Assembly (NCBI RefSeq): GCF_016026235.1 | Contig: NZ_CP065613.1 | Length of the DNA: 64,000 nucleotides | Direction: 5' to 3' (one strand) | Source: Escherichia coli | GTDB taxonomy: Bacteria > Pseudomonadota > Gammaproteobacteria > Enterobacterales > Enterobacteriaceae | Part shown: in pieces, positions 6,328-43,855 of the stretch | Position numbering within the stretch: position 1 is the stretch's first letter | Layout of the letters: each line of letters begins with the position of its first letter | Notes under the pieces: model-generated | The model's input: the letters and a program-made list of their open reading frames with translations, nothing else | Told to the model about the DNA's origin: nothing | Database searches by the model: none | Program-made: the position numbers and the translations under genes

Positions 6328-6353
6328 TTCGCACCTCATCATCTGCACGCAAT

Positions 6354-6402
6354 ATACTATAGGGGGGTATGCTATATGTCAATACATACCCCCCTATAGT
6401 AT
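6354..6402. promoter_or_regulatory. putative frmRAB operator: perfect 17-bp inverted repeat ATACTATAGGGGGGTAT (15 bp spacer) ATACCCCCCTATAGTAT
   Basis: Arms at 6354..6370 and 6386..6402 are exact reverse complements; sits directly upstream of the frmR start on the minus strand. Confidence 0.7.
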
Positions 6403-6486
6403 ATAACACTGGAGAATAATTGTTGTCCGAAGCCTAACCAGGTGAACGGTCCCTCAAGACAGATGGGGACCGTTTATGTGCTATTT

Positions 6487-7533
6487 TTATGCCGCATCCG
6501 CTAAAACAAACATCCCGTAAGGATGGATTTCGAGGTAATAGTGCTCACCAATATCGGGCTGTAAACGGGTGGCGTTTACTTGTAATAAAATCTCCTGTCC
6601 ATGCCACTCTACGGTCACTTCGTACTGCGGCCCCATGTAGGCGACATGGCGAATAACACAACGCTGACTCTCTTCGCCGTGATTGCTTAAGGTGATGGCT
6701 TCCGGGCGAACGCCGACGGTGCCGCTACCTTGCGCCGGGAAATGCGCCGCGCGCGGCAGGCGATAACCGTAGATATCGACATACTCTTCGCTAAAGTTCG
6801 CCGGGAACAGGTTGGCGTCGCCCATAAAACTTGCCATAAAGCGGGAGGCTGGCTGACGATAGAGCTCCTGCGGTGAGCCAATCTGCATGATGTGACCTTT
6901 ATTCATCACCAGCACAGTGTCGGACACCGCGAAAGCTTCACTTTGATCGTGAGTGACGTAGAGCGACGTGATATTAAACTGCTTTTGCAGCTCGCGGATC
7001 TTATCGCGCATACTGCGGCGCAGGTTGGCATCGAGGTTACTTAACGGCTCATCAAACAGCAGCACCTTTGGCTTGAGGATCAACGCGCGGGCCAGTGCCA
7101 CTCGCTGTTGCTGACCACCGGAAATCTGATCGACATAGCGGTCCTCGAAGCCTTCCAGATCCACCATTGCCAGCGCCTCCTTCACCCGCTGTTTCACTTC
7201 GCTACGCGAGACGCCAAGCATCTTCAGCCCGTAGCCAACGTTTTCACCCAGCGACATATGCGGGAACAGAGCGTATGACTGAAACACCATGCAGATATCG
7301 CGCTGTTGAATGGAACGATGCGTGACATCTTCGCCATCAATAAAAATTTGCCCTTCGCTCGGTTTTTCCAGCCCGGCAACCAGACGCAAAATGGTGGTTT
7401 TGCCACAGCCGGAAGGACCGAGCAGCGTCACCATTTGCCCTTGTGGAATGGTGAGATTGATATTGTCGATAACCGTATTACTGCCGAATCGTTTAGTGAC
7501 GTTGCGCAGTTCAACAAAATTTTTCTGACTCAT
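6487..7533 (-). CDS. afuC: ABC transporter ATP-binding protein, AfuC-like (start may instead be 7545)
   Basis: Walker [13 protein letters not shown] signature [10 protein letters not shown]-terminal TOBE-like region; GGAG lies 6 nt upstream of the ATG at 7533; an alternative ATG at 7545 overlaps the afuB stop by 1 nt. Confidence 0.8.
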
Positions 7534-7544
7534 ATTGCGCTCCA

Positions 7545-9623
7545 TTACGCCTGGTTTTTGGCTTTAGAACGGGAGATACGAGCTTCTCCGATCAGCCAGT
7601 CAAAGAGGAAAATAATCGCCAGCATCACCACGATCAGAATCGAACCATAGGCGATGGCTACGCCATATTCGCCGTCTTCAACGCGGTTAAGAATGTAGGC
7701 GGTTGCCACGCGGGTGTCCGGCGTGACGAGAAAGACGATGGCGCTGACCGTCGTGATGGCCCGCACAAAGCTGTAGATCAGGGCCGAGAGAATGGCCGGA
7801 CGCAGCAGCGGCAGTAAAATGTGGGTTATGGTTCGCAAGGAACCCGCGCGCAGGCTGAGTGAGGCTTCATCCAGCGATTTGTCGATCTGCCCCAGACCCG
7901 CAATCCCGGCGCGAATACCCACCGGAACGTTACGCATCACCATCGAGATAATCACAATTGCCGCCGTTCCGGTGAGATAAACCGGAGCGCTGTTAAAGGC
8001 AAGAATATACGAAACGCCCGCCACCGTACCCGGTACGGCAAAGCACAGCATGGTGGTGAACTCGATGGTCTTTTTGCCTTTGAATTGTTGACGCACCACC
8101 ACCCAGGCGATGAGCAGGCCAAAGATAGCGGTAATGGGAGCGGCAATCCCGGCGTAGAGCAGGGTATCCAGCAGTGAAGGCCACGCGCCGTCGCTCATTC
8201 CCTGACCAAATAGCTTGATAAAGTTATCCAGCGTCAGGGTGTAGTCCACGCCCCAGTTCACCGTGAAGCTGCCGTAGAAAATGCTGCCGTAGAGCAGGGC
8301 GTTAAAGGCAATCCATATCGCAAGTATGGCGACCACGCTCCACACCAGGGTGACCGGTAGCGGCTGGACGTCGCCACGGTAGGATTTGCCGGAAACCGTG
8401 ACGTAAGAGCGTTTACCAATCCACATATACTGGATGCAGAACACCAGCAGCGAGAACAGCAGCAGGAAAGCGCCAAGGGTGCTGGCGGCCTGATAATCCA
8501 GCTGCGAGCCGGTAATATAGAAGTAAATTTGCGTCGCCAGTACGTCGAAGTTACCGCCAAGTACCAGCGGGTTACTGAAATCAGCCAGTGACTGTACCAC
8601 GACGATTAAAAAGGCATTGGCGAGTGCGGGCTTCAACAACGGCACAAACACGCCGTTAAAGGTTTGCCAGCGGCTGGCGCGCAGGGTGTAGGAGGCCTCT
8701 TCCAGCGAGGGATGAATGGTTTTAATGGCCCCGTCGAGGATCATAAATGCCATTGGCGTGAATGCCAGAACCTGTGCCAGCCAGATCCCGGTAAAACCGT
8801 ACAGCCAGTTGGTGTTGGTCAGCCCAAACCACTCCACCATAAATTCCGTAACATAGCCGGAGCGCCCCATCATGAGCGTCACGCCTAAGCCGACCACAAA
8901 CGGTGGCGTAACGATGGGCAAAATGGAAAAGATGCGACCAATAATGGCGCTGCGTTTAGCGATGCGCGTGGTATAAATCGCCAGCACCAGGCCGAAGAAA
9001 GTACAGCCTATCCCCACCGCTATCGACAAGACGATAGAGTTGACGATCACCTGAACAATATGTGCCTGCGAGAGCACGGTCATAAACGCCAGCGGGGCGA
9101 ACTCTCCCGCGTCGTTGGTGAACATCGGGATAAAAATGGCGATGCTCGGCCAGACGATAAAAATGCCAATCAGCGCCACAATCGCAATCAGTGAGCCGAT
9201 CACGAAGCGGTCGCCACCCAGCCATTCGAGGCGGGTTAAGGCCAGCGTCATAATCGCGCCTAGTTCGACAAACAGCACGATGGCGGCGTAGCCTAAACCG
9301 CGTCCAACCACGGTGGCGCTGATGACGATAAACGCCATACAGAGCAATGCCCAGCCGGCATCGAAATAATGACGGCTACGTTGTTCGCGCGTGGCCTCAC
9401 TAAACGGGCGGACCAGCAACAGGCTCGGGAGTAAATACCACAGCCAGCTGATATTAAAATGCGACCAGCCGTACGCCCCGAGGATCTCATCACTCGTGGA
9501 CTCCAGCAGGCCATAATCGAGGCTCCAGCTCGGCAACAGTATAAATGCCAGCCAGCCCAGCAAAACCCAAAGGAAAATCGCATCCCGCTTTTTCACGGGA
9601 TGGAGTGCAAGTGTCTGTGACAT
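7545..9623 (-). CDS. afuB: ABC transporter permease with duplicated transmembrane domains, AfuB/FbpB-like
   Basis: 692-aa highly hydrophobic ORF with two-lobed permease organisation; lies between the binding-protein and ATPase genes. Confidence 0.85.
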
Positions 9624-9691
9624 AGCAGTTCCGGTATGGTTGGCCGGGGCAGGCGTTTGTGCTGCACCCGGAAAATACGCCTAATGCGGGT

Positions 9692-10723
9692 TTATTTACC
9701 CATCTTCACTTCGCTGACCCATTTATTAATCAATGCCTTACGAACATCCGTGGAACCATATTTATCCATGTCGTAGTTGATTAATTTCAGGTCGTCGAGC
9801 TTCAGTGAATTTGGCGACGTTTCGGCGGTGGTATTGGTCAGGATCTGATAAGACTTCCCTTTCTTCCACGCCAGTTCCTGAGCTTCTTTTGATAATACCC
9901 AGTCCACAAACAGTTTGGCGTTGTCGAGGTTGCGCGCGCCTTTCAGAATGCTGACGCCGCCAATTTCGTAGCCTGTACCTTCACACGGGGAAATCAACTC
10001 CAGCGGCGCGCCCTGTTCTTTTTCCAGCGAGTAGTCATGCAGGAAGCCAATACCAATCGCCGTTTCGCCACGGGCGGCGTTACGTGCCGGGGCTATGCCT
10101 GATTTGGTGTACTGAGAGACGTTGGCGTTCAGTTGTTTTAGATAATCAAAGGCCTGATCTTCCCCCCACAGCTGCGCAAAAGTAGCCAGGGCGGTGTAGG
10201 CAGTACCGGAACTTTGCGGATCGGCAATTTGAATTTCGCCTTTATATTCCGGTTTGGTGAGATCTTTCCAGCACTTCGGCACCGGCAGGTTTTTCTCTTT
10301 CAGACGATCGGTGTTTACGCCAAAACCGAGGATCCCCACATAAACGGCAGAGGACAGATTCCCTTTCACTTTTGCCGGATCGCGGAATTTCTCCATGATC
10401 TGCTCAAGGTTAGGGGATTTATACGCCTGTAGCAGGCCCATCTCGCCAGCCTGCGATTGTGGGTCTAAAGTGCCGCCGTACCAGACGTCAGCCTGGGGGT
10501 TTTTCTTTTCAGCATCGACTTTTGCCAGGGTGCTTCCGGAACCGTTGCGGATAAACGAGGTTTTTACATCATATTTCTCGCCAAACGCTTTGGTTTCGGC
10601 CTCACACATTTCATTGGTGGCGCTGCAATAGACCACCAGCCGGCCTTTTGCCTGCGCGGCACCCGTTAAAGTCGCCAGCGCAACGGCAGAAGCAATCAGA
10701 GTAGAGGTAAAGGTCATTTTCAT
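9692..10723 (-). CDS. afuA: periplasmic substrate-binding protein, AfuA/FbpA-like (proposed sugar-phosphate binding)
   Basis: ORF 9692..11050; internal ATG at 10723 gives MKMTFTSTLIASAVALATLTGAAQA signal peptide; the upstream extension overlaps the neighbouring gene and is spurious. Confidence 0.85.
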   Translation of the reverse strand: MKMTFTSTLIASAVALATLTGAAQAKGRLVVYCSATNEMCEAETKAFGEKYDVKTSFIRNGSGSTLAKVDAEKKNPQADVWYGGTLDPQSQAGEMGLLQAYKSPNLEQIMEKFRDPAKVKGNLSSAVYVGILGFGVNTDRLKEKNLPVPKCWKDLTKPEYKGEIQIADPQSSGTAYTALATFAQLWGEDQAFDYLKQLNANVSQYTKSGIAPARNAARGETAIGIGFLHDYSLEKEQGAPLELISPCEGTGYEIGGVSILKGARNLDNAKLFVDWVLSKEAQELAWKKGKSYQILTNTTAETSPNSLKLDDLKLINYDMDKYGSTDVRKALINKWVSEVKMGK

Positions 10724-12036
10724 TGTTTTATCCTTCGAGCGTGAGTGGTGGTGATGCCCGCCATCAGTAACGGCATCAGCAGTAAACCCATAAGTACTGC
10801 GGCGACCGAGAGTAAACTGAACATTCCCGGCCAGCCGTAGCGTTCGATGACCAGCGACAGCGGCCAGCCTGCCAGCGCTGCGCCAAGGTAAGCGAACAGG
10901 CCGAGAAATCCGGTGATTGAACCCGCCGCAGCTTTGTGCCCACACTCCACCGCCGCAAGTCCAATCAGCATTTGTGGGCCAAAGACGAAAAAGCCCACGG
11001 TAAAAAAGCACACTGCCAGCAGAGCGTAGTGATGAACCGGTGCCAGCCACAGTGCGGCGACTGACACCATCAACCCCAACGTGAACAGCAAAATCATTGG
11101 CGCTCGTTGCCCGCTAAACAGCAAATCCGATCCCCATCCGGCAAATAACGCGCCGAGTAAGCCGCCCACTTCAAACAGCATTACCGTGGCGTTGGCGCTG
11201 AGCAGGTTGACACCGTGGCTTTCCGTCAGCCAGATATTGCCCCAGTCGTTAAGCGCAATCCGGATCACATAAACCAGTACATAAGAGACGCCCAGTAGCC
11301 AGATCAGCGGATTTTGCAGCATGGTGGTGCGCAACATTTGCCACAGCCCCATCGGCGGACTTTGTTGTTCCTGACGTAACTCCAGCGGATCGTGACGCCA
11401 GTGACCAACTGTCGGTAATCCCTCTTCCTGGGGCGTGCCTTTGAGTTGTAGCGTTAACCAGATCCCTAATGCCATGCTGATTATCCCCGGTGTCAGCATC
11501 GCGGCCTGCCAGCCCCACCAGTGGGCGGCAAAGGCGCTAATCAGCGGAATAATCGCTCCGCCAATGTTGATCGACATATTCCAGCAGCCCCACCAGAAAC
11601 CGCGCTCATTGCGTGAGTACCAGTGGGTCAGCAAGCGGGCACACGGTGGCCATCCCCAGCCCTGAAAAAAACCGTTCAGTGTCCAGACCACAAGCAGAAG
11701 CGTAAGTGATTCGCCAAAGGCAAACACCACGTTCAATAACCCGGTGGCGAACAAGCCGACGCCCATAAAACCGCGTTGTCCGTGGCTGTCATGCCACAGT
11801 CCGGCGGTAAATTTCGACAATCCGTAGCTGAGATAAAACAGCGAACCCAGCAGGCCAATGTCGCCTTTATCCAGTCCGAGGTCGGTTTGTAGCGCCGGAA
11901 GGACGTAATTCACGCTTTTTCGCGTCAGATAAAATGCGGCGTAGCCAATAATCATGCACATCAGCAATCGCGGACGTAATGTCCGGTAGCATTGATCAAT
12001 TTCTCTCGCTGAACGCGCGTGCATGGTTGTCTCCAT
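10720..12036 (-). CDS. MFS protein, UhpC-like sugar-phosphate sensor/transporter paralog
   Basis: 438 aa; clear similarity to K-12 UhpC recalled from memory (e.g. FFQGWGWPPCARLLTHWYSRNERG versus UhpC FFQGWGSPVCARLLTAWYSRTERG); TGA stop overlaps the afuA ATG. Confidence 0.85.
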   Translation of the reverse strand: METTMHARSAREIDQCYRTLRPRLLMCMIIGYAAFYLTRKSVNYVLPALQTDLGLDKGDIGLLGSLFYLSYGLSKFTAGLWHDSHGQRGFMGVGLFATGLLNVVFAFGESLTLLLVVWTLNGFFQGWGWPPCARLLTHWYSRNERGFWWGCWNMSINIGGAIIPLISAFAAHWWGWQAAMLTPGIISMALGIWLTLQLKGTPQEEGLPTVGHWRHDPLELRQEQQSPPMGLWQMLRTTMLQNPLIWLLGVSYVLVYVIRIALNDWGNIWLTESHGVNLLSANATVMLFEVGGLLGALFAGWGSDLLFSGQRAPMILLFTLGLMVSVAALWLAPVHHYALLAVCFFTVGFFVFGPQMLIGLAAVECGHKAAAGSITGFLGLFAYLGAALAGWPLSLVIERYGWPGMFSLLSVAAVLMGLLLMPLLMAGITTTHARRIKQ

Positions 12037-12108
12037 GTTGCTGACTATATGAAAATGAAAGTGAAAGGGGATGAGAGAAAATCCGGGATACCTAAGACTT
12101 TTTCCTGG

Positions 12109-13650
12109 TTATCCGGCGATTTGTTGCAAAAATGTGGGCAAGTTAACAATTACCCGCGTGCCGTGCTGTTTTTCGAGCGTTAAGTCGCCGCCCAGGGCGC
12201 TGACGCGCTCACGCATCCCCTGAATGCCAAATCCGGCCATTTTCCCGCTGGCGATCCCCACACCGTTGTCGCTGACTTCCAGATGCAATACCTCTCCCTG
12301 CTGGCGCAGGATAATCGTCACTTCGCTGGCTTCGGCGTGTTTACAGATGTTATTGAGCAACTCCTGCAATAACCGATACAAGGTAAAGCGCACCGTTTCG
12401 TTTTCTGGTGTGGAGTTCAGTTGATAGGCAAACTGGCAATGAATGCCGCGTTCACTAAAGGCAAATTCATTAATCAGATGCAGCAACGCTTCGCGAAATG
12501 TCAGTTCATCAAGCGCGGGAGGCCGCAACTGGCGCAGCAATTGGCGGGTGGAGAGATGAATGCGGCGGGCGAGCTCATTGATTTGGCTGGCTGCGGATTG
12601 AATTTGCGCCGGATCACGCGCCCGCTTCACCAGTTGCGACTGGATCTGAATGGCGGTGATGTTCTGACCGATTTCGTCGTGCAGCTCTCGCGCCAGGTTT
12701 TTTCGCGTGTCCTCCTCGGTGTGGATCAGCTTTTCCGCCAATGCCCGCCGCGCTGCCAGCTCGGCCTCCAGCCGTTGTCGGTAATGGTGCAGGTTTAGCG
12801 CCAGATGTTGCTGGCGACTGATGGCAATGCCCAGGCCAATTCCCAGCAAGGCCTGGGTCGCGAGGAAAATCTCCAGCTCCACCAGGTTACTAAAGCCCAC
12901 GCCAATCTGGCGGGCGATGGTGATCATCATGCTGCCCAAAAGCCCGGAGAGTACGCCACCTTGCCAGCCAAATTTCCACGCCATCACCACATTGGGCAAA
13001 AAGACCACGATCAACAGCAGACGTTCAATTTCAGGTGACAGCACCATCTGAGTGCCGATACCAATAATAAAAAACAGGCTACACCAGATGATTAAAGAGG
13101 TACGCAAGGGGGGATTATGCGTATCGAGTCCCAGGAGCTGGTAGCGATGCTGCTGGCGCAGAAACTCAAAGATAAGATAGACAAACGGCGTCAGTAATAC
13201 GCCGCCGGTAAATGAGGTCAAACCCGGCAGCATTATTGGGCCTGACATAAAAGGGGAGAGCAGGGCGGTATTCAACAATGAAGCTGCCGTGACAGTGGCT
13301 AACAGCAACGTCAGACGCTGCCAGTAAAGTGGAAAACGGTGCCAGAAGTTTTGCGCGAGGAGGACAGGAAACAGGCTAATAACCGGCGTTGCCAGCATGA
13401 GATAACCGTTCAATAGCTGTTCACTATGGAGCCAGAACATCATCAGCAAAGGGGGGAGCACCAACGCAGGCCAGTAGCGGCGAGAGAGCAAAATAACAAG
13501 GGCGAGATAAACTCCCTGCGGGAGAAACAACACCGCCTGTTGACCGTTATTGGTCAGATAAAAGCTGAGCGTCCACAGCATCAGCCAGCCGGTTCCCCAG
13601 GCCAGCACAATAAACAGCGAAATCACCCAATGACGAAGATTGCGCGACAT
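12109..13650 (-). CDS. sensor histidine kinase, UhpB-like (membrane N-terminal domain, HisKA_3, HATPase)
   Basis: 513 aa; N-terminal polytopic region, conserved WKFGWQGG and RELHDEIGQ H-box region similar to UhpB. Confidence 0.85.
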   Translation of the reverse strand: MSRNLRHWVISLFIVLAWGTGWLMLWTLSFYLTNNGQQAVLFLPQGVYLALVILLSRRYWPALVLPPLLMMFWLHSEQLLNGYLMLATPVISLFPVLLAQNFWHRFPLYWQRLTLLLATVTAASLLNTALLSPFMSGPIMLPGLTSFTGGVLLTPFVYLIFEFLRQQHRYQLLGLDTHNPPLRTSLIIWCSLFFIIGIGTQMVLSPEIERLLLIVVFLPNVVMAWKFGWQGGVLSGLLGSMMITIARQIGVGFSNLVELEIFLATQALLGIGLGIAISRQQHLALNLHHYRQRLEAELAARRALAEKLIHTEEDTRKNLARELHDEIGQNITAIQIQSQLVKRARDPAQIQSAASQINELARRIHLSTRQLLRQLRPPALDELTFREALLHLINEFAFSERGIHCQFAYQLNSTPENETVRFTLYRLLQELLNNICKHAEASEVTIILRQQGEVLHLEVSDNGVGIASGKMAGFGIQGMRERVSALGGDLTLEKQHGTRVIVNLPTFLQQIAG

Positions 13651-14279
13651 TAATGCCCCGCCAGCAGATGGTGGTCGAGCGCAAAATGTACCAGTTCAAT
13701 GGTGCTATGGCAGTTCAGTTTTCCCAGCACATTGGCGCGATGCACATGTACCGTTTTATGACTGAGTTCGAGTTTAAAGGCGATCTCTTTAACGCTGTCT
13801 CCTTTGACCAGTAAATCAAACACTTCACGTTCTCGTGGGGTGAGAATTTCCAGCGCCTGGGCGGGTTGCCCGCCGCCGCGTAAAGCCCGAATCGCATCGG
13901 CACAGAGATAATGCCCGCCCAGCCCGACCGAGCGCACCGCCTGCACTAACTCTTCCGGCCCACAGCGTTTGGTTAAATACCCGCTGGCACCGGCATCCAG
14001 CGCGCTTTGCACAAAGGTTGGCGCGTCATAAATGCTAAGAATAATGGCGCGAAATTGCGGTTTTTGTGCACGCAGGCGCTTAAGCAAACTGAGGCCGTTT
14101 TCGTCCGGCATGGCAATATCAATGACGGCAACATTGACGTCATCACGGATTAATGCCGACCATGCCTGCGCGGCACTACTGTACTGACCAATGACCTCCA
14201 GATCGTCTTCCAGAGAGAGTAATTGTGCGAAGCCAGAGCGCACCACCACATGGTCATCCACCAGCACTACCCGAATCAT
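13650..14279 (-). CDS. response regulator, UhpA-like (NarL/LuxR family)
   Basis: 209 aa; MIRVVLVDDHVVVRSGFAQLL receiver domain and C-terminal LuxR HTH (KTVHVHRANVLGKL) closely parallel UhpA. Confidence 0.85.
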   Translation of the reverse strand: MIRVVLVDDHVVVRSGFAQLLSLEDDLEVIGQYSSAAQAWSALIRDDVNVAVIDIAMPDENGLSLLKRLRAQKPQFRAIILSIYDAPTFVQSALDAGASGYLTKRCGPEELVQAVRSVGLGGHYLCADAIRALRGGGQPAQALEILTPREREVFDLLVKGDSVKEIAFKLELSHKTVHVHRANVLGKLNCHSTIELVHFALDHHLLAGH

Positions 14280-14581: not shown

Positions 14582-15544
14582 ATGGCAATTTCATCGCGTA
14601 ACACACTTCTTGCCGCACTGGCATTCATCGCTTTTCAGGCACAGGCGGTGAACGTCACCGTGGCGTATCAAACCTCAGCCGAACCGGCGAAAGTGGCTCA
14701 GGCCGACAACACCTTTGCTAAAGAAAGCGGAGCAACCGTGGACTGGCGTAAGTTTGACAGCGGAGCCAGCATCGTGCGGGCGCTGGCTTCAGGCGACGTG
14801 CAAATCGGCAACCTCGGTTCCAGCCCGTTAGCGGTTGCAGCCAGCCAACAGGTGCCGATTGAAGTCTTCTTGCTGGCGTCAAAACTGGGTAACTCCGAAG
14901 CGCTGGTGGTAAAGAAAACTATCAGCAAACCGGAAGATCTGATTGGCAAACGCATCGCCGTACCGTTTATCTCCACCACCCACTACAGCCTGCTGGCGGC
15001 GCTGAAACACTGGGGCATTAAACCCGGGCAAGTGGAGATTGTGAACCTGCAGCCGCCCGCGATTATCGCTGCCTGGCAGCGGGGAGACATTGATGGTGCT
15101 TATGTCTGGGCACCGGCGGTTAACGCCCTGGAAAAAGACGGCAAGGTGCTGACCGATTCTGAACAGGTCGGGCAGTGGGGCGCGCCAACGCTGGACGTTT
15201 GGGTGGTGCGCAAAGATTTTGCCGAGAAACATCCTGAGGTCGTGAAAGCGTTCGCTAAAAGCGCCATCGATGCTCAGCAACCGTACATTGCTAACCCAGA
15301 CGTGTGGCTGAAACAGCCGGAAAACATCAGCAAACTGGCGCGTTTAAGCGGCGTGCCTGAAGGTGACGTTCCGGGGCTGGTGAAGGGGAATACCTATCTG
15401 ACGCCGCAGCAACAAACGGCAGAACTGACCGGACCGGTGAACAAAGCGATTATCGACACCGCGCAGTTTTTGAAAGAGCAGGGCAAGGTCCCGGCTGTAG
15501 CGAATGATTACAGCCAGTACGTTACCTCGCGCTTCGTGCAATAA
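14582..15544 (+). CDS. tauA: taurine ABC transporter periplasmic binding protein
   Basis: 320-aa ORF with signal peptide; first gene of the tauABCD cluster. Confidence 0.95.
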   Translation: MAISSRNTLLAALAFIAFQAQAVNVTVAYQTSAEPAKVAQADNTFAKESGATVDWRKFDSGASIVRALASGDVQIGNLGSSPLAVAASQQVPIEVFLLASKLGNSEALVVKKTISKPEDLIGKRIAVPFISTTHYSLLAALKHWGIKPGQVEIVNLQPPAIIAAWQRGDIDGAYVWAPAVNALEKDGKVLTDSEQVGQWGAPTLDVWVVRKDFAEKHPEVVKAFAKSAIDAQQPYIANPDVWLKQPENISKLARLSGVPEGDVPGLVKGNTYLTPQQQTAELTGPVNKAIIDTAQFLKEQGKVPAVANDYSQYVTSRFVQ

Positions 15545-15556
15545 AAGGAGGCGCAG

Positions 15557-16324
15557 ATGCTGCAAATCTCTCATCTTTACGCCGATTATGGCGGCAAACC
15601 GGCACTGGAAGATATCAACCTGACGCTGGAAAGCGGCGAACTACTGGTGGTGCTGGGGCCGTCCGGCTGCGGTAAAACCACCCTGCTGAATCTGATTGCC
15701 GGTTTTGTGCCTTATCAGCATGGCAGCATTCAACTGGCGGGTAAGCGTATTGAGGGACCGGGAGCAGAGCGTGGCGTAGTTTTTCAGAATGAAGGGCTAC
15801 TACCGTGGCGCAATGTACAGGACAACGTGGCGTTCGGCCTGCAATTGGCAGGTATAGAGAAAATGCAGCGACTGGAAATCGCGCACCAGATGCTGAAAAA
15901 AGTGGGGCTGGAAGGCGCAGAAAAACGCTACATCTGGCAGCTTTCCGGCGGTCAACGTCAGCGGGTGGGCATTGCCCGCGCGCTGGCGGCGAATCCCCAG
16001 CTGTTATTACTCGACGAACCGTTTGGTGCGCTGGACGCCTTCACCCGCGACCAGATGCAAACCCTGCTGCTGAAACTCTGGCAGGAGACGGGCAAGCAGG
16101 TGCTGTTGATTACCCACGATATAGAAGAAGCGGTGTTTATGGCGACTGAACTGGTTCTGCTTTCATCCGGCCCTGGACGTGTGCTGGAGCGGCTGCCGCT
16201 CAACTTTGCTCGCCGCTTTGTTGCGGGAGAGTCGAGCCGCAGCATCAAGTCCGATCCACAATTCATCGCCATGCGCGAATATGTTTTAAGCCGCGTATTT
16301 GAGCAACGGGAGGCGTTCTCATGA
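15557..16324 (+). CDS. tauB: taurine ABC transporter ATP-binding protein
   Basis: 255 aa; Walker [10 protein letters not shown], signature LSGGQRQRV. Confidence 0.95.
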
Positions 16325-17148
16325 GTGTGCTCATTAATGAAAAACTGCATTCGCGGCGGCTGAAATGGCGCTGGCCGCTCTCGCGTCAGGTGACCTTAAG
16401 CATTGGCACGTTAGCGGTTTTACTCACTGTATGGTGGACGGTGGCGGCGCCGCAACTGATTAGCCCGCTGTTTTTGCCGCCGCCGCAACAAGTACTGGCA
16501 AAACTGCTCACCATTGCCGGACCGCAGGGATTTATGGACGCCACGCTGTGGCAGCATCTGGCAGCCAGCCTGACGCGCATTGTGCTGGCGCTACTCGCGG
16601 CGGTGTTGATCGGCATTCCGGTCGGGATCGCCATGGGGCTAAGCCCGACGGTGCGCGGCATTCTGGATCCGGTAATCGAACTTTATCGTCCGGTGCCGCC
16701 GCTGGCTTATTTACCACTGATGGTGATCTGGTTTGGTATTGGCGAAACCTCGAAGATCTTACTGATCTATTTAGCGATTTTTGCGCCGGTGGCGATGTCG
16801 GCGCTGGCAGGGGTGAAAAGCGCGCAGCAGGTTCGCATTCGTGCCGCCCAGTCGCTGGGTGCCAGCCGTGCGCAGGTGCTGTGGTTTGTCATTTTGCCCG
16901 GCGCGCTGCCGGAAATCCTCACCGGATTACGCATTGGTCTGGGGGTGGGCTGGTCTACCCTGGTAGCGGCGGAGCTGATTGCCGCGACGCGCGGTTTAGG
17001 ATTTATGGTTCAGTCAGCGGGTGAATTTCTCGCGACTGACGTGGTGCTGGCGGGGATCGCGGTGATTGCGATTATCGCCTTTCTTTTAGAACTGGGTTTG
17101 CGCGCGTTACAGCGCCGACTGACGCCCTGGCATGGAGAAGTACAATGA
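16321..17148 (+). CDS. tauC: taurine ABC transporter permease
   Basis: 275-aa hydrophobic ORF; 4-nt overlap with tauB and with tauD. Confidence 0.95.
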
Positions 17149-43700: not shown

Positions 43701-43855
43701 AGACAAATGGCGTCCAGCAGGGTGGTTTTCCCCGCACCTGTTGGGCCGGTAATAGCAAACAGCCCGTTGCTGGCGAACGGCTCGCGGGTGAAATCAATCT
43801 TCCATTCGCCTTTTAATGAGTTCAGGTTTTTCAGGCGCAGGCTGAGAATTTTCAT
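40712..43855 (-). CDS. sbcC: SbcCD nuclease ATPase subunit SbcC
   Basis: 1047 aa; N-terminal Walker [10 protein letters not shown], long coiled coil with CPLCGS zinc hook, C-terminal [13 protein letters not shown]. Confidence 0.95.

Follow-up and report, generated by a model that had tools for sequence, protein, structure and literature searches.

An ATGA stop-start overlap joins the UhpC-like gene z0461 to afuA in a Uhp-type sensor and AfuABC importer island of Escherichia coli

Genes of the island and their start codons

The island lies between frmR on one side and tauA on the other in a 64-kb stretch of Escherichia coli DNA, which was analysed as a whole and is called the window below. It is the locus already known as O-island 20 (OI-20) of EHEC O157:H7, with FusKR (Z0462/Z0463), Z0461 and AfuABC (Pacheco 2012; Sit 2015, PMC4546632). 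All of its features described here are on the minus strand. The response-regulator gene fusR (Z0463; 13650-14279) encodes a UhpA-like protein of the NarL/FixJ type (209 aa); the EDL933 tag Z0463 is given in the supplement of PMC6199705. The adjacent fusK (Z0462; 12109-13650) encodes a UhpB-like MASE1 sensor histidine kinase (513 aa), and both genes were identified from their open reading frames and the PGAP annotation. The third gene, z0461 (10720-12024), encodes a UhpC-family MFS protein (434 aa; NCBIfam model and PGAP start) and is referred to as uhpC' when other species are compared. The remaining three genes are afuA (Z0460/ECs0415; 9692-10723), encoding a periplasmic sugar-phosphate binding protein (343 aa; PDB matches, ORF and PGAP), afuB (Z0459; 7545-9623), encoding a fused double permease (692 aa; ORF, PGAP and NCBIfam profile search), and afuC (Z0458; 6487-7533), encoding an ABC ATPase (348 aa; NCBIfam NF008513, PGAP and conserved start).

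The cluster is found far beyond EHEC O157:H7: 519 of 5426 complete E. coli genomes carry it, and so do at least 79 Enterobacterales species. The 79 species in which the upstream flank is available were used as the comparison set, and the synteny of the six genes is kept in all of them. When AfuA was used as a protein query, the best 120 matches all came from Enterobacterales. Only across the island does the FDAARGOS_943 record match the window exactly; elsewhere it carries IS insertions and an internal stop in tauA, both absent from the window.

The first-pass annotation of this DNA had named the products UhpA-, UhpB- and UhpC-like proteins and AfuABC, and profile and homology searches bear these names out. 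The Z0461 protein scores 587.5 bits against the NCBIfam UhpC subfamily model NF008661 (cut-off 564), which places it in the UhpC family, and it is 53% identical to K-12 UhpC and 29% to UhpT. For the regulator and the kinase the UhpA and UhpB models are the best matches, with scores below the cut-offs (193.4 bits against 258 and 381.7 bits against 408, respectively), and the two proteins are therefore paralogues rather than equivalogs. AfuC scores 699.6 bits against NF008513 (cut-off 496). AfuA (WP_000784324.1, identical to the EDL933 protein) has a signal peptide of residues 1-25, ending in AQA before a K, and matches PDB entries 4r72 (E = 1.5e-169) and 8x1a (E = 1.7e-173), both alignments beginning at query residue 25. 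The sugar-phosphate binding motif H205, D206 and E229 (PMC4546632) is present in the precursor as H229, D230 and E253. With these residues in the binding protein, and with the fused permease gene and the ATPase gene adjacent, AfuABC has the features of a sugar-phosphate importer. In functional terms the six genes would join a sensor module of the Uhp type, made up of regulator, MASE1 kinase and UhpC-like MFS protein, to the AfuABC hexose/heptose-phosphate ABC importer, which would occupy the place that UhpT has in K-12.

Start codons were compared at each junction. The kinase ATG and the regulator stop share a single base in TAATG (13652-13648), so the 1-nt overlap at 13650 that had been reported for these genes stands; K-12 uhpA and uhpB, likewise genes for a NarL-type regulator and a MASE1 kinase, have the same 1-nt TAATG overlap. 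The junction is -1 nt in 50 of 76 species, with tblastn-derived coordinates that are approximate for the other 26. For z0461 the start at 12024 is conserved, is used by PGAP and is preceded by a GGAG Shine-Dalgarno site (12034-12031). The alternative at 12036 was rejected; its ATG is not conserved and its Shine-Dalgarno pairing is +1.0 kcal/mol, versus -6.4 at 12024. A 1-nt overlap between afuB and afuC (TAATG, 7543-7547) had also been proposed and did not hold. The ATG at 7545 is not conserved, being replaced elsewhere (taaCGGAG, taacact), and it lies within the GGAG Shine-Dalgarno site (7543-7540) of the afuC start at 7533, which is conserved across species and is the PGAP choice. The gap between afuB and afuC is 11 nt.

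The stop-start junction of z0461 and afuA

At the junction, with minus-strand sequence CGAAGGATAAAACAATGAAAATGACC, the ATG of afuA (10723-10721) and the TGA of z0461 (10722-10720) share bases in an ATGA (10720-10723), and a second in-frame ATG follows at 10717-10715. The sequence, the open reading frames (10720-12036 and 9692-11050) and PGAP all confirm this overlap, as first noted, and the same 4-nt overlap is annotated in a RefSeq/PGAP record identical across the island. Over 151 nt around the junction, E. coli O157:H7 genomes match the window at 100% identity, and this stretch occurs in 519 of the 5426 complete E. coli genomes.

The overlap is real but ordinary. Five of approximately 37 same-strand adjacent gene pairs in the window overlap by 4 nt (412-415, 10720-10723, 16321-16324, 17145-17148 and 43852-43855), and the other four are mhpF/E, tauB/C, tauC/D and sbcD/C. 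These background overlaps were verified again in the window itself, because the FDAARGOS_943 record differs outside the island. As in the classical ATGA-overlapping cistrons of bacterial operons, the two genes are on the same strand within a probable operon, the stop is embedded in the next start, and comparison of sequences supports a true downstream start. Unlike those cistrons, afuA keeps a strong Shine-Dalgarno site of its own and the overlap is not kept from one genus to the next, so that it looks incidental rather than a selected coupling device.

The length of the junction in the 79 species lies between -4 and +160 nt: it is -4 in 23, -1 in 9 and +4 to +20 in 33, whereas 12 species have +35 to +60 and the remaining 2 have +157 or +160. 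As judged from these sequences, the ATGA overlap is lineage-specific. Constant features of the junction are the AAGGA Shine-Dalgarno site of afuA, 7 nt upstream, and the ATGAAA start. The last 12 codons of z0461 form a non-conserved tail that runs through this Shine-Dalgarno site and ends in the ATGA. The z0461 frame would continue to the first in-frame stop, which in the E. coli, Citrobacter and Serratia lineages is the TGA within the invariant ATGAAA of afuA; the overlap would therefore be a by-product of a drifting, non-conserved C-terminal tail of UhpC'.

A promoter-like spacer and the transcription of z0461-afuABC

The main result beyond the overlap concerns the 84 nt that separate fusK from z0461. 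This spacer carries a very strongly conserved promoter-like footprint whose predicted geometry matches that of the K-12 uhpT promoter. The kinase-to-uhpC' spacer measures 72-123 nt in 76 of the 79 species. A -10 hexamer, TATAGT, is found at 12044-12049, and we infer a transcription start near 12037; T-12, A-11 and T-7 are shared by all 75 sequences, with variation at the positions in between, and the spacing of these three bases from an upstream TCTCAT is fixed and ungapped. This TCTCAT, invariant in all 75 unique sequences, belongs to the TCTCATCC box (12069-12076; -39 to -32), which takes up the usual -35 region, and no good -35 hexamer is present at the putative z0461 promoter. Directly after the kinase stop, centred at about -63, is a 7-3-7 inverted repeat (CCAGGAA-AAA-GTCTTAG; 12092-12108) that is a candidate dimer site for the response regulator. 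It is conserved in the great majority of loci, and Buttiauxella, Rahnella, Erwinia and related genera have it as a perfect palindrome, C[CT]AGGAA-N3-TTCCT[AG]G; in E. coli it is degenerate, with four of seven positions symmetric, which counts against our reading. The repeat occurs once in the 64-kb window, with no second copy, for example upstream of fusR where it could point to autoregulation. A putative CAP/CRP-like site (TGTTA-N6-CCACA; 12133-12148) lies in the 3' end of the kinase gene, centred at about -103.5, and is nearly invariant (72-75 of 75 sequences). CAP-like sites with up to two mismatches are as frequent in the window as expected by chance (22 found, 25.6 expected), so this one counts only by its position and conservation and, being within coding sequence, is suggestive only.

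The uhpT promoter of K-12 reportedly has, in Kadner-laboratory work (by Olekhnovich and Kadner, 2002), a weak -35 region, with a CAP site at about -103.5 and a repeat for the activator close to -64, and the predicted geometry at the island agrees with all three. A CRP site upstream of the UhpA sites at the uhpT promoter is also documented (PMC5352689, PMC4790336). In a direct comparison, the K-12 promoter has a CAP-like CGTGA-N6-TCACC at the identical distance from the -10 hexamer, TCTCA at the identical -39 to -35 position, and an inverted repeat centred near -63/-64. The repeats themselves differ (CCAGGAA..TTCCTGG for the island versus GGCAAAAC..GTTTTGCC for K-12 uhpT). The placement of the regulated promoter also differs, since it is upstream of uhpC' in the island, in the 84-nt spacer, and downstream of uhpC in K-12, where the uhpB-uhpC and uhpC-uhpT spacers are 9 and 137 nt.

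The annotation had described the island as one or two operons. This is right, and the conserved promoter-like spacer between fusK and z0461 favours two, so that the island probably consists of the units fusRK and z0461-afuABC. In the explanation that we consider likely as a whole, z0461, afuA, afuB and afuC would form a four-gene transcription unit with the ATGA overlap as an internal cistron junction. Transcription would most likely start from an activator-dependent promoter in the 84-nt spacer that has TATAGT (12049-12044) and no usable -35, and that is laid out like the UhpA- and CAP-dependent K-12 uhpT promoter, with the TCTCATCC box at -39, the 7-3-7 repeat at about -63 and the CAP-like site at about -103.5. 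Some read-through from fusR-fusK would be possible because no terminator lies between the two units. FusKR is reported to regulate z0461 with FusR as a repressor (PMC6199705), whereas a site at -63 without a -35 element looks like an activation architecture, and this counts against the explanation.

That z0461 and afuA are co-transcribed, as the annotation had proposed, is well supported by indirect evidence. The junction leaves no room for a promoter or terminator, and given the overlap, separate transcripts for the two genes would require a promoter within z0461. No sigma-70-like promoter or terminator-like matches were found on the minus strand of z0461 (10724-12024), and no terminator was found in the 160-nt z0461-afuA gap of Yersinia. 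The adjacency of uhpC' and afuA is conserved in 79 of 79 species, with a gap of at most 20 nt in 65. In a published EHEC transcriptome, ECs0415 (afuA) and ECs0416 belong to one expression cluster that is induced at glucose exhaustion, which fits CAP dependence.

A promoter of their own in the 3' part of z0461 could instead be the main source of afuABC transcripts, and the overlap would then be uninformative on co-expression. The afuA mRNA is more abundant and more strongly induced than that of z0461: in the published counts, afuA has a baseMean of 261 over 1032 nt and z0461 one of 179 over 1305 nt, which is higher for afuA per unit length, and in the EHEC transcriptome the induction is log2 5.2 for afuA and 3.6 for z0461. 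An extra internal promoter would explain these differences, as would differential mRNA stability. Stand-alone afuABC loci with an upstream region of their own exist, as in Xenorhabdus, and according to a 2013 study by Moisi the hexose-6-phosphate uptake genes of V. cholerae reportedly form a separate, Pho-regulated operon. Against such a promoter stand the lack of a sigma-70-like match in z0461 and the 40 nt before the afuA Shine-Dalgarno site, which vary between lineages and show no promoter footprint, in contrast to the very strong footprint upstream of z0461. In addition, the supplement of an EDL933 RNA-seq study (PMC6199705) names each of afuA and Z0461 in four lists of genes that differ in expression between conditions compared, and the fold changes are similar in the two lists that show both (2.7 vs 2.3 and 3.3 vs 2.7). 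We consider it unlikely that afuABC is transcribed mainly from such an internal promoter, which would in any case be compatible with transcription from the fusK-z0461 spacer and not exclusive of it. A search of the available literature found no transcript-start, RT-PCR or Term-seq data for the locus.

Downstream in the proposed unit, the afuA-afuB spacer is 68 nt (53-191 nt in 80 of 80 loci) and has a predicted hairpin (9644-9671) for which mRNA stabilisation or partial termination is a possible role, its fold being no better than that of shuffled sequences (z = -0.28). The folds of the z0461-afuA junction (z = -0.05) and the fusK-z0461 spacer (z = -0.95) are likewise no more stable than shuffled, and these three regions give no evidence of regulatory RNA structure or an intrinsic terminator.

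Translation initiation at afuA and relation to FusKR

Translational coupling of z0461 and afuA had been presented as a likely consequence of the overlap, and as a necessary consequence it is not supported. The AAGGA Shine-Dalgarno site of afuA (10731-10735) lies within the last five codons of z0461 and is conserved as AAGGA or AAGGG across the compared loci, with an anti-Shine-Dalgarno pairing of -5.5 kcal/mol at a spacing of 6-7 nt. The start region is A-rich and predicted to be unstructured, with both this site and the ATG unpaired in the centroid fold. Neither of the features that would indicate strict coupling, absence of an independent Shine-Dalgarno site or a start masked by structure, is therefore found at afuA. 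Ribosomes would begin afuA mainly at this strong and unstructured site, 7 nt before the ATG at 10723, and the ATGA would permit some reinitiation by terminating ribosomes.

Obligatory coupling would mean that AfuA is made only by ribosomes that end at the z0461 TGA and reinitiate at the ATG, tying its output to that of UhpC'. The ATGA arrangement allows termination-reinitiation, an overlap of 4 or 1 nt is present in 32 of the 79 species, and other operons, e.g., at trpE/trpD and trpB/trpA, provide established cases of coupling at overlaps of this kind. On the other side, the afuA Shine-Dalgarno site is independent, universally conserved and optimally spaced, and in 47 of the 79 species the uhpC' stop is 4-160 nt upstream while this site and the ATG are unchanged. 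A periplasmic binding protein would normally be needed in large excess over a membrane sensor, which also argues against 1:1 coupling. Finally, afuABC functions without an upstream uhpC' gene at the Xenorhabdus locus and when cloned from A. pleuropneumoniae (PMC4546632). Obligatory coupling is thus improbable. The idea that the overlap is an annotation artefact, with AfuA starting at the second in-frame ATG two codons downstream (10717) or elsewhere, is scarcely tenable, since 78 of 79 loci have ATG as their first codon whereas codon 3 is CTG, AAA, ACA, ACG, GTT or similar in most species, an ATG at 10717 would have a Shine-Dalgarno spacing of 12-13 nt, and MK(M/L/K)T... fits the n-region of an ordinary signal peptide. 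The comparison thereby settles the start, which had been left between two ATGs, at 10723.

In the EHEC literature (PMC6199705), FusKR is treated as a fucose sensor with fucose assigned as the FusK signal, and Z0461 as a fucose-import protein. In the literature examined on EHEC O-island 20 (PMC4546632 among it), there is no description of the overlap of z0461 and afuA, of the way the genes are arranged in operons or of a uhpT-like promoter, and our literature search found no sugar-phosphate test of the FusK/Z0461 system. Tentatively, the island can be read as a Uhp system that has been rewired across the Enterobacterales: a CAP- and regulator-dependent uhpT-type promoter would precede the gene of a UhpC-like co-sensor, which is fused by the overlap to AfuABC, and sensor and transporter would be co-induced in a positive feedback. 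The transported substrates, hexose phosphates, are common to K-12 uhp and the island, and the transporters differ, the ATP-driven importer AfuABC versus the antiporter UhpT. If this reading is true, FusKR/Z0461 would ancestrally, and perhaps primarily, be a sugar-phosphate module that controls afuABC rather than an EHEC-restricted fucose sensor. The conserved uhpT-like promoter would offer a concrete site for finding the signal that controls the island, with fucose and hexose phosphates as the candidates and cAMP-CRP in addition.

In itself the overlap is routine; in practical terms it means that neither z0461 nor afuABC can be considered independently of the other. Regulators of z0461 transcription, to which FusKR is reported to belong, should also govern the AfuABC importer. 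On the tentative reading of a rewired Uhp system, some part of the phenotypes published for z0461 deletions could also stem from a polar loss of AfuABC, because the Shine-Dalgarno site of afuA lies in the last z0461 codons. Deletion of the complete z0461 frame would also take out the afuA ribosome-binding site. In C. rodentium, AfuABC contributes to colonisation and transmission (PMC4546632). In V. cholerae, VCA0682-VCA0687 is a system that takes up hexose-6-phosphate, as cited in PMC4101255. The AfuABC genes of the island have their Uhp-type sensor genes directly upstream. In V. cholerae too, VCA0682-VCA0687 adjoins uhpABC-like regulator genes.

Gene content and distribution of OI-20

Six minus-strand genes (fusR-fusK-z0461-afuABC), flanked by frmR and tauA on the E. 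coli chromosome, constitute EHEC O-island 20 (OI-20), a locus that is already known (EDL933 tags Z0463 fusR, Z0462 fusK, Z0461, Z0460 afuA, Z0459 afuB and Z0458 afuC). fusR (13650-14279) encodes a NarL-type response regulator with UhpA as best model (193 bits, cut-off 258), fusK (12109-13650) a MASE1 histidine kinase with UhpB as best model (382 bits, cut-off 408) and z0461 (10720-12024) an MFS protein of the UhpC subfamily (587.5 bits, cut-off 564), which is 53% identical to K-12 UhpC and 29% to UhpT. The fused double permease gene afuB (7545-9623) and the ATPase gene afuC (6487-7533) were matched by family models. The product of afuA (9692-10723) matches the A. pleuropneumoniae AfuA structures 4r72-4r75 (E = 1.5e-169) and retains H205/D206/E229, which Sit et al. 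2015 (PMC4546632) established as the sugar-phosphate motif.

O157:H7 genomes match a 151-nt stretch around the z0461/afuA junction at 100% identity. Of 5426 complete E. coli genomes, 519 contain this stretch, every time on the chromosome. E. coli carriers of the six genes include pig, horse, fowl and water isolates, and the cluster occurs in at least 79 Enterobacterales species, including plant- and insect-associated genera (comparison loci L003-L082 and L086). This breadth, apparently not spelled out in the available literature, contrasts with a 2024 review, which states FusKR as present in EHEC O157:H7 (PMC11644481). NZ_CP065615 is identical to the window over the island; tauA (14582-15544, plus strand), intact in the window, has an internal stop there, and IS2, IS1, ISEc60 and IS5 insertions are present that the window lacks. 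The two are therefore different strains sharing an identical island.

Gene overlaps and start codons

The minus-strand junction reads ...GCTCGAAGGATAAAACAATGAAAATGACC..., in which the afuA start ATG (10723-10721) overlaps the TGA (10722-10720) that closes the z0461 ORF (10720..12036). The first-pass annotation had described three gene overlaps, two of which are real: this one, also present in the RefSeq/PGAP annotation of NZ_CP065615, and the regulator/kinase TAATG at 13650. The second in-frame afuA ATG that it had pointed out is present at 10717-10715. The third overlap, of 1 nt between afuB and afuC, did not hold, as afuC starts at 7533, leaving an 11-nt gap after afuB. At 7533, ATG-AGT/ACT-CAG-AAA is conserved across species, PGAP also starts the gene, and Shine-Dalgarno pairing is -5.6 kcal/mol versus -2.5 at 7545. 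A start at 7545 was rejected: its 'ATG' becomes ACG or vanishes across species and belongs to the GGAG ribosome-binding site.

Overlaps of 4 nt are the commonest type in bacteria. Of the roughly 37 pairs of neighbouring genes that share a strand in the window, five have such an overlap (mhpF/E, z0461/afuA, tauB/C, tauC/D and sbcD/C, all checked in the sequence), and the z0461/afuA overlap is no more than expected by chance. Since OI-20 is known, its annotation public, this overlap type the commonest and a precedent available from V. cholerae, the overlap as such is already known, ordinary and visible in public annotation. According to a passage in PMC4101255 citing Moisi 2013, V. cholerae has Uhp-like regulators beside a hexose-phosphate ABC transporter of the Afu type.

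A scan with AfuA yielded one locus per species, 80 in all, spread over many genera of Enterobacterales (AfuA identity 85-99%), and the order regulator-kinase-UhpC'-AfuA-AfuB-AfuC is kept in all 79 with upstream flank. The distance from the stop of UhpC' (the z0461 counterpart) to the afuA start is -4 nt (ATGA) in 23 species, -1 nt (TAATG) in 9, +4 to +20 nt in 33, +35 to +60 nt in 12 and +157 or +160 nt in 2 (Yersinia). The first afuA ATG is kept in 78 of 79 loci and codon 3 is ATG in a minority only (elsewhere CTG, AAA, ACA, ACG, GTT etc.); AfuA therefore starts at 10723. Position 10717 was rejected as a start, as the codon-3 ATG is not conserved and the Shine-Dalgarno spacing would be 12-13 nt. 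Across loci, a Shine-Dalgarno sequence (AAGGA or AAGGG) is conserved 7 nt 5' of afuA.

In 78/79 loci afuA begins with ATGAAA, and a TGA is thereby almost always on offer in one of the frames. The frame and length of the non-conserved C-terminal tail of UhpC' decide if the protein ends at this TGA. The alignment to K-12 UhpC ends 12 residues short of the z0461 C-terminus, and the last ~12 codons (GITTTHARRIKQ, 10724-10760, minus strand) are not conserved, varying in length and reading frame between genera. The afuA Shine-Dalgarno site sits within these codons; cleanly deleting the z0461 ORF would therefore take the afuA ribosome-binding site with it. Judged by this comparison, the ATGA overlap is confined to certain lineages and is a side effect of drift in the tail, with tight linkage as the conserved part.

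A predicted promoter between fusK and z0461

Both the island and K-12 uhp have a 1-nt regulator/kinase overlap. The kinase/uhpC junction measures 84 nt in the island (72-123 nt in 76/79 species) and 9 nt in K-12, whereas uhpC and the transporter gene are separated by -4 nt (afuA) in the island and by 137 nt with a promoter (uhpT) in K-12. The 84-nt spacer is strikingly conserved. In an ungapped alignment of 75 unique spacer sequences anchored on a TCTCAT box (kinase protein identity down to 55%), this box (-39 to -34 from the inferred transcription start near 12037) and T-12, A-11 and T-7 of the -10 hexamer TATAGT (12049-12044) are each invariant in 75/75, and the positions between them vary freely. 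Directly after the kinase stop codon lies a 7-3-7 inverted repeat, C[CT]AGGAA-N3-TTCCT[AG]G (12108-12092, centre ~-63), which occurs once in the window, is perfect in more distant genera and has a degenerate right half in E. coli.

Counted from the -10 hexamer, the K-12 uhpT promoter (-10 TACAAT) has TCTCA at the identical -39 to -35, and a CAP-like 16-mer occupies -111 to -96 in both (CGTGA-N6-TCACC in K-12 uhpT, TGTTA-N6-CCACA in the island). Kadner-lab papers on uhpT reportedly place the CAP site at -103.5 and a UhpA site at -64. CAP-like sites occur at chance frequency in the window and the island site lies in coding sequence; for these reasons it is unremarkable alone, and only its position and invariance count. 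In published work on K-12 uhpT, the strong and the weak UhpA sites lie downstream of a CRP site (PMC4790336, PMC5352689). The whole footprint spans 12044-12148 on the minus strand with the geometry of the K-12 uhpT promoter. It argues strongly for an activator-dependent promoter that would drive z0461-afuABC. Neither such a relocated uhpT-like promoter nor z0461 and afuABC as one regulated unit is apparently spelled out in the available literature. A sigma-70 consensus scan did not pick up the predicted promoter because it has no -35 element. FusR is reported to repress z0461 (PMC6199705), which is in tension with the promoter architecture, as this looks like activation.

Transcription units and translational coupling

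One unit would comprise fusR-fusK, joined by the 1-nt overlap, and a second z0461-afuA-afuB-afuC, transcribed from the uhpT-like promoter; read-through from the first into the second is possible. What the data show directly are the sequence features, start codons, conservation and synteny, from which we infer the promoter's activity, its acting regulator, the transcript ends and how much reinitiation takes place. The ATGA junction would then be internal to the second unit. In EDL933 RNA-seq (supplement of PMC6199705), four lists of differentially expressed genes contain afuA (RS02120) and four contain Z0461 (RS02125), with similar fold changes in the two that give values for both (2.68 vs 2.33; 3.30 vs 2.66); some lists also show induction of afuB, afuC, fusK and fusR. 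In Sakai microarrays, ECs0415 (afuA; log2 5.2, described as 37-fold) and ECs0416 (log2 3.55) share an expression cluster, and both are induced as glucose runs out (PMC2241611), which fits CAP dependence.

In these literature data afuA mRNA is somewhat above z0461 mRNA. Stabilisation by a GC-rich hairpin (9644-9671) in the 68-nt afuA-afuB spacer (9624-9691, minus strand) could possibly account for this excess; 80/80 loci have a spacer at this junction, 53-191 nt long, and shuffled sequences fold no less well than the hairpin. The same hairpin may lie behind the excess of afuA over afuB and afuC mRNA. An additional internal promoter is also possible, and the sigma-70 scan gave no minus-strand hit within z0461. 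No convincing terminator was found at either spacer in the scan.

The afuA Shine-Dalgarno pairing is -5.5 kcal/mol at a spacing of 6-7 nt, and the A-rich start region is unpaired in the predicted centroid structure, with no extra fold stability relative to shuffles (z = -0.05). Cloned A. pleuropneumoniae afuABC works without an upstream uhpC' gene (PMC4546632). Reinitiation by terminating ribosomes at the ATGA is possible, and neither the start region, the Shine-Dalgarno nor stand-alone afuABC indicates that AfuA depends on it. Of the first-pass interpretation, the predicted co-transcription is supported, in the form of two operons, and necessary translational coupling of z0461 and afuA is not supported. 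Coupling is more plausible at fusR/fusK than at afuA, because the fusK Shine-Dalgarno is weak and poorly spaced.

In Xenorhabdus bovienii (locus L085, 5582-6000), afuABC is a stand-alone set of genes preceded by 419 nt of AT-rich spacer, with AfuA 80% identical and without regulator, kinase and UhpC' genes or the TCTCAT box, so the sensor-transporter link is widespread, not universal.

On the afuC 3' side (6440-6486, minus strand) a GGTCCC-N12-GGGACC hairpin without T-run follows the stop codon, and no clear intrinsic terminator was seen between the afu unit and the frmR promoter. Upstream of frmR (6352-6410, minus strand), a TTGACA-17-TAGTAT promoter is enclosed by a long inverted repeat, ATACTATAGGGGGGTAT...ATACCCCCCTATAGTAT, presumably the FrmR operator. 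The mhpE-mhpT spacer (1466-1911) contains a ~101-bp tandem repeat whose copy number differs from the closest annotated record.
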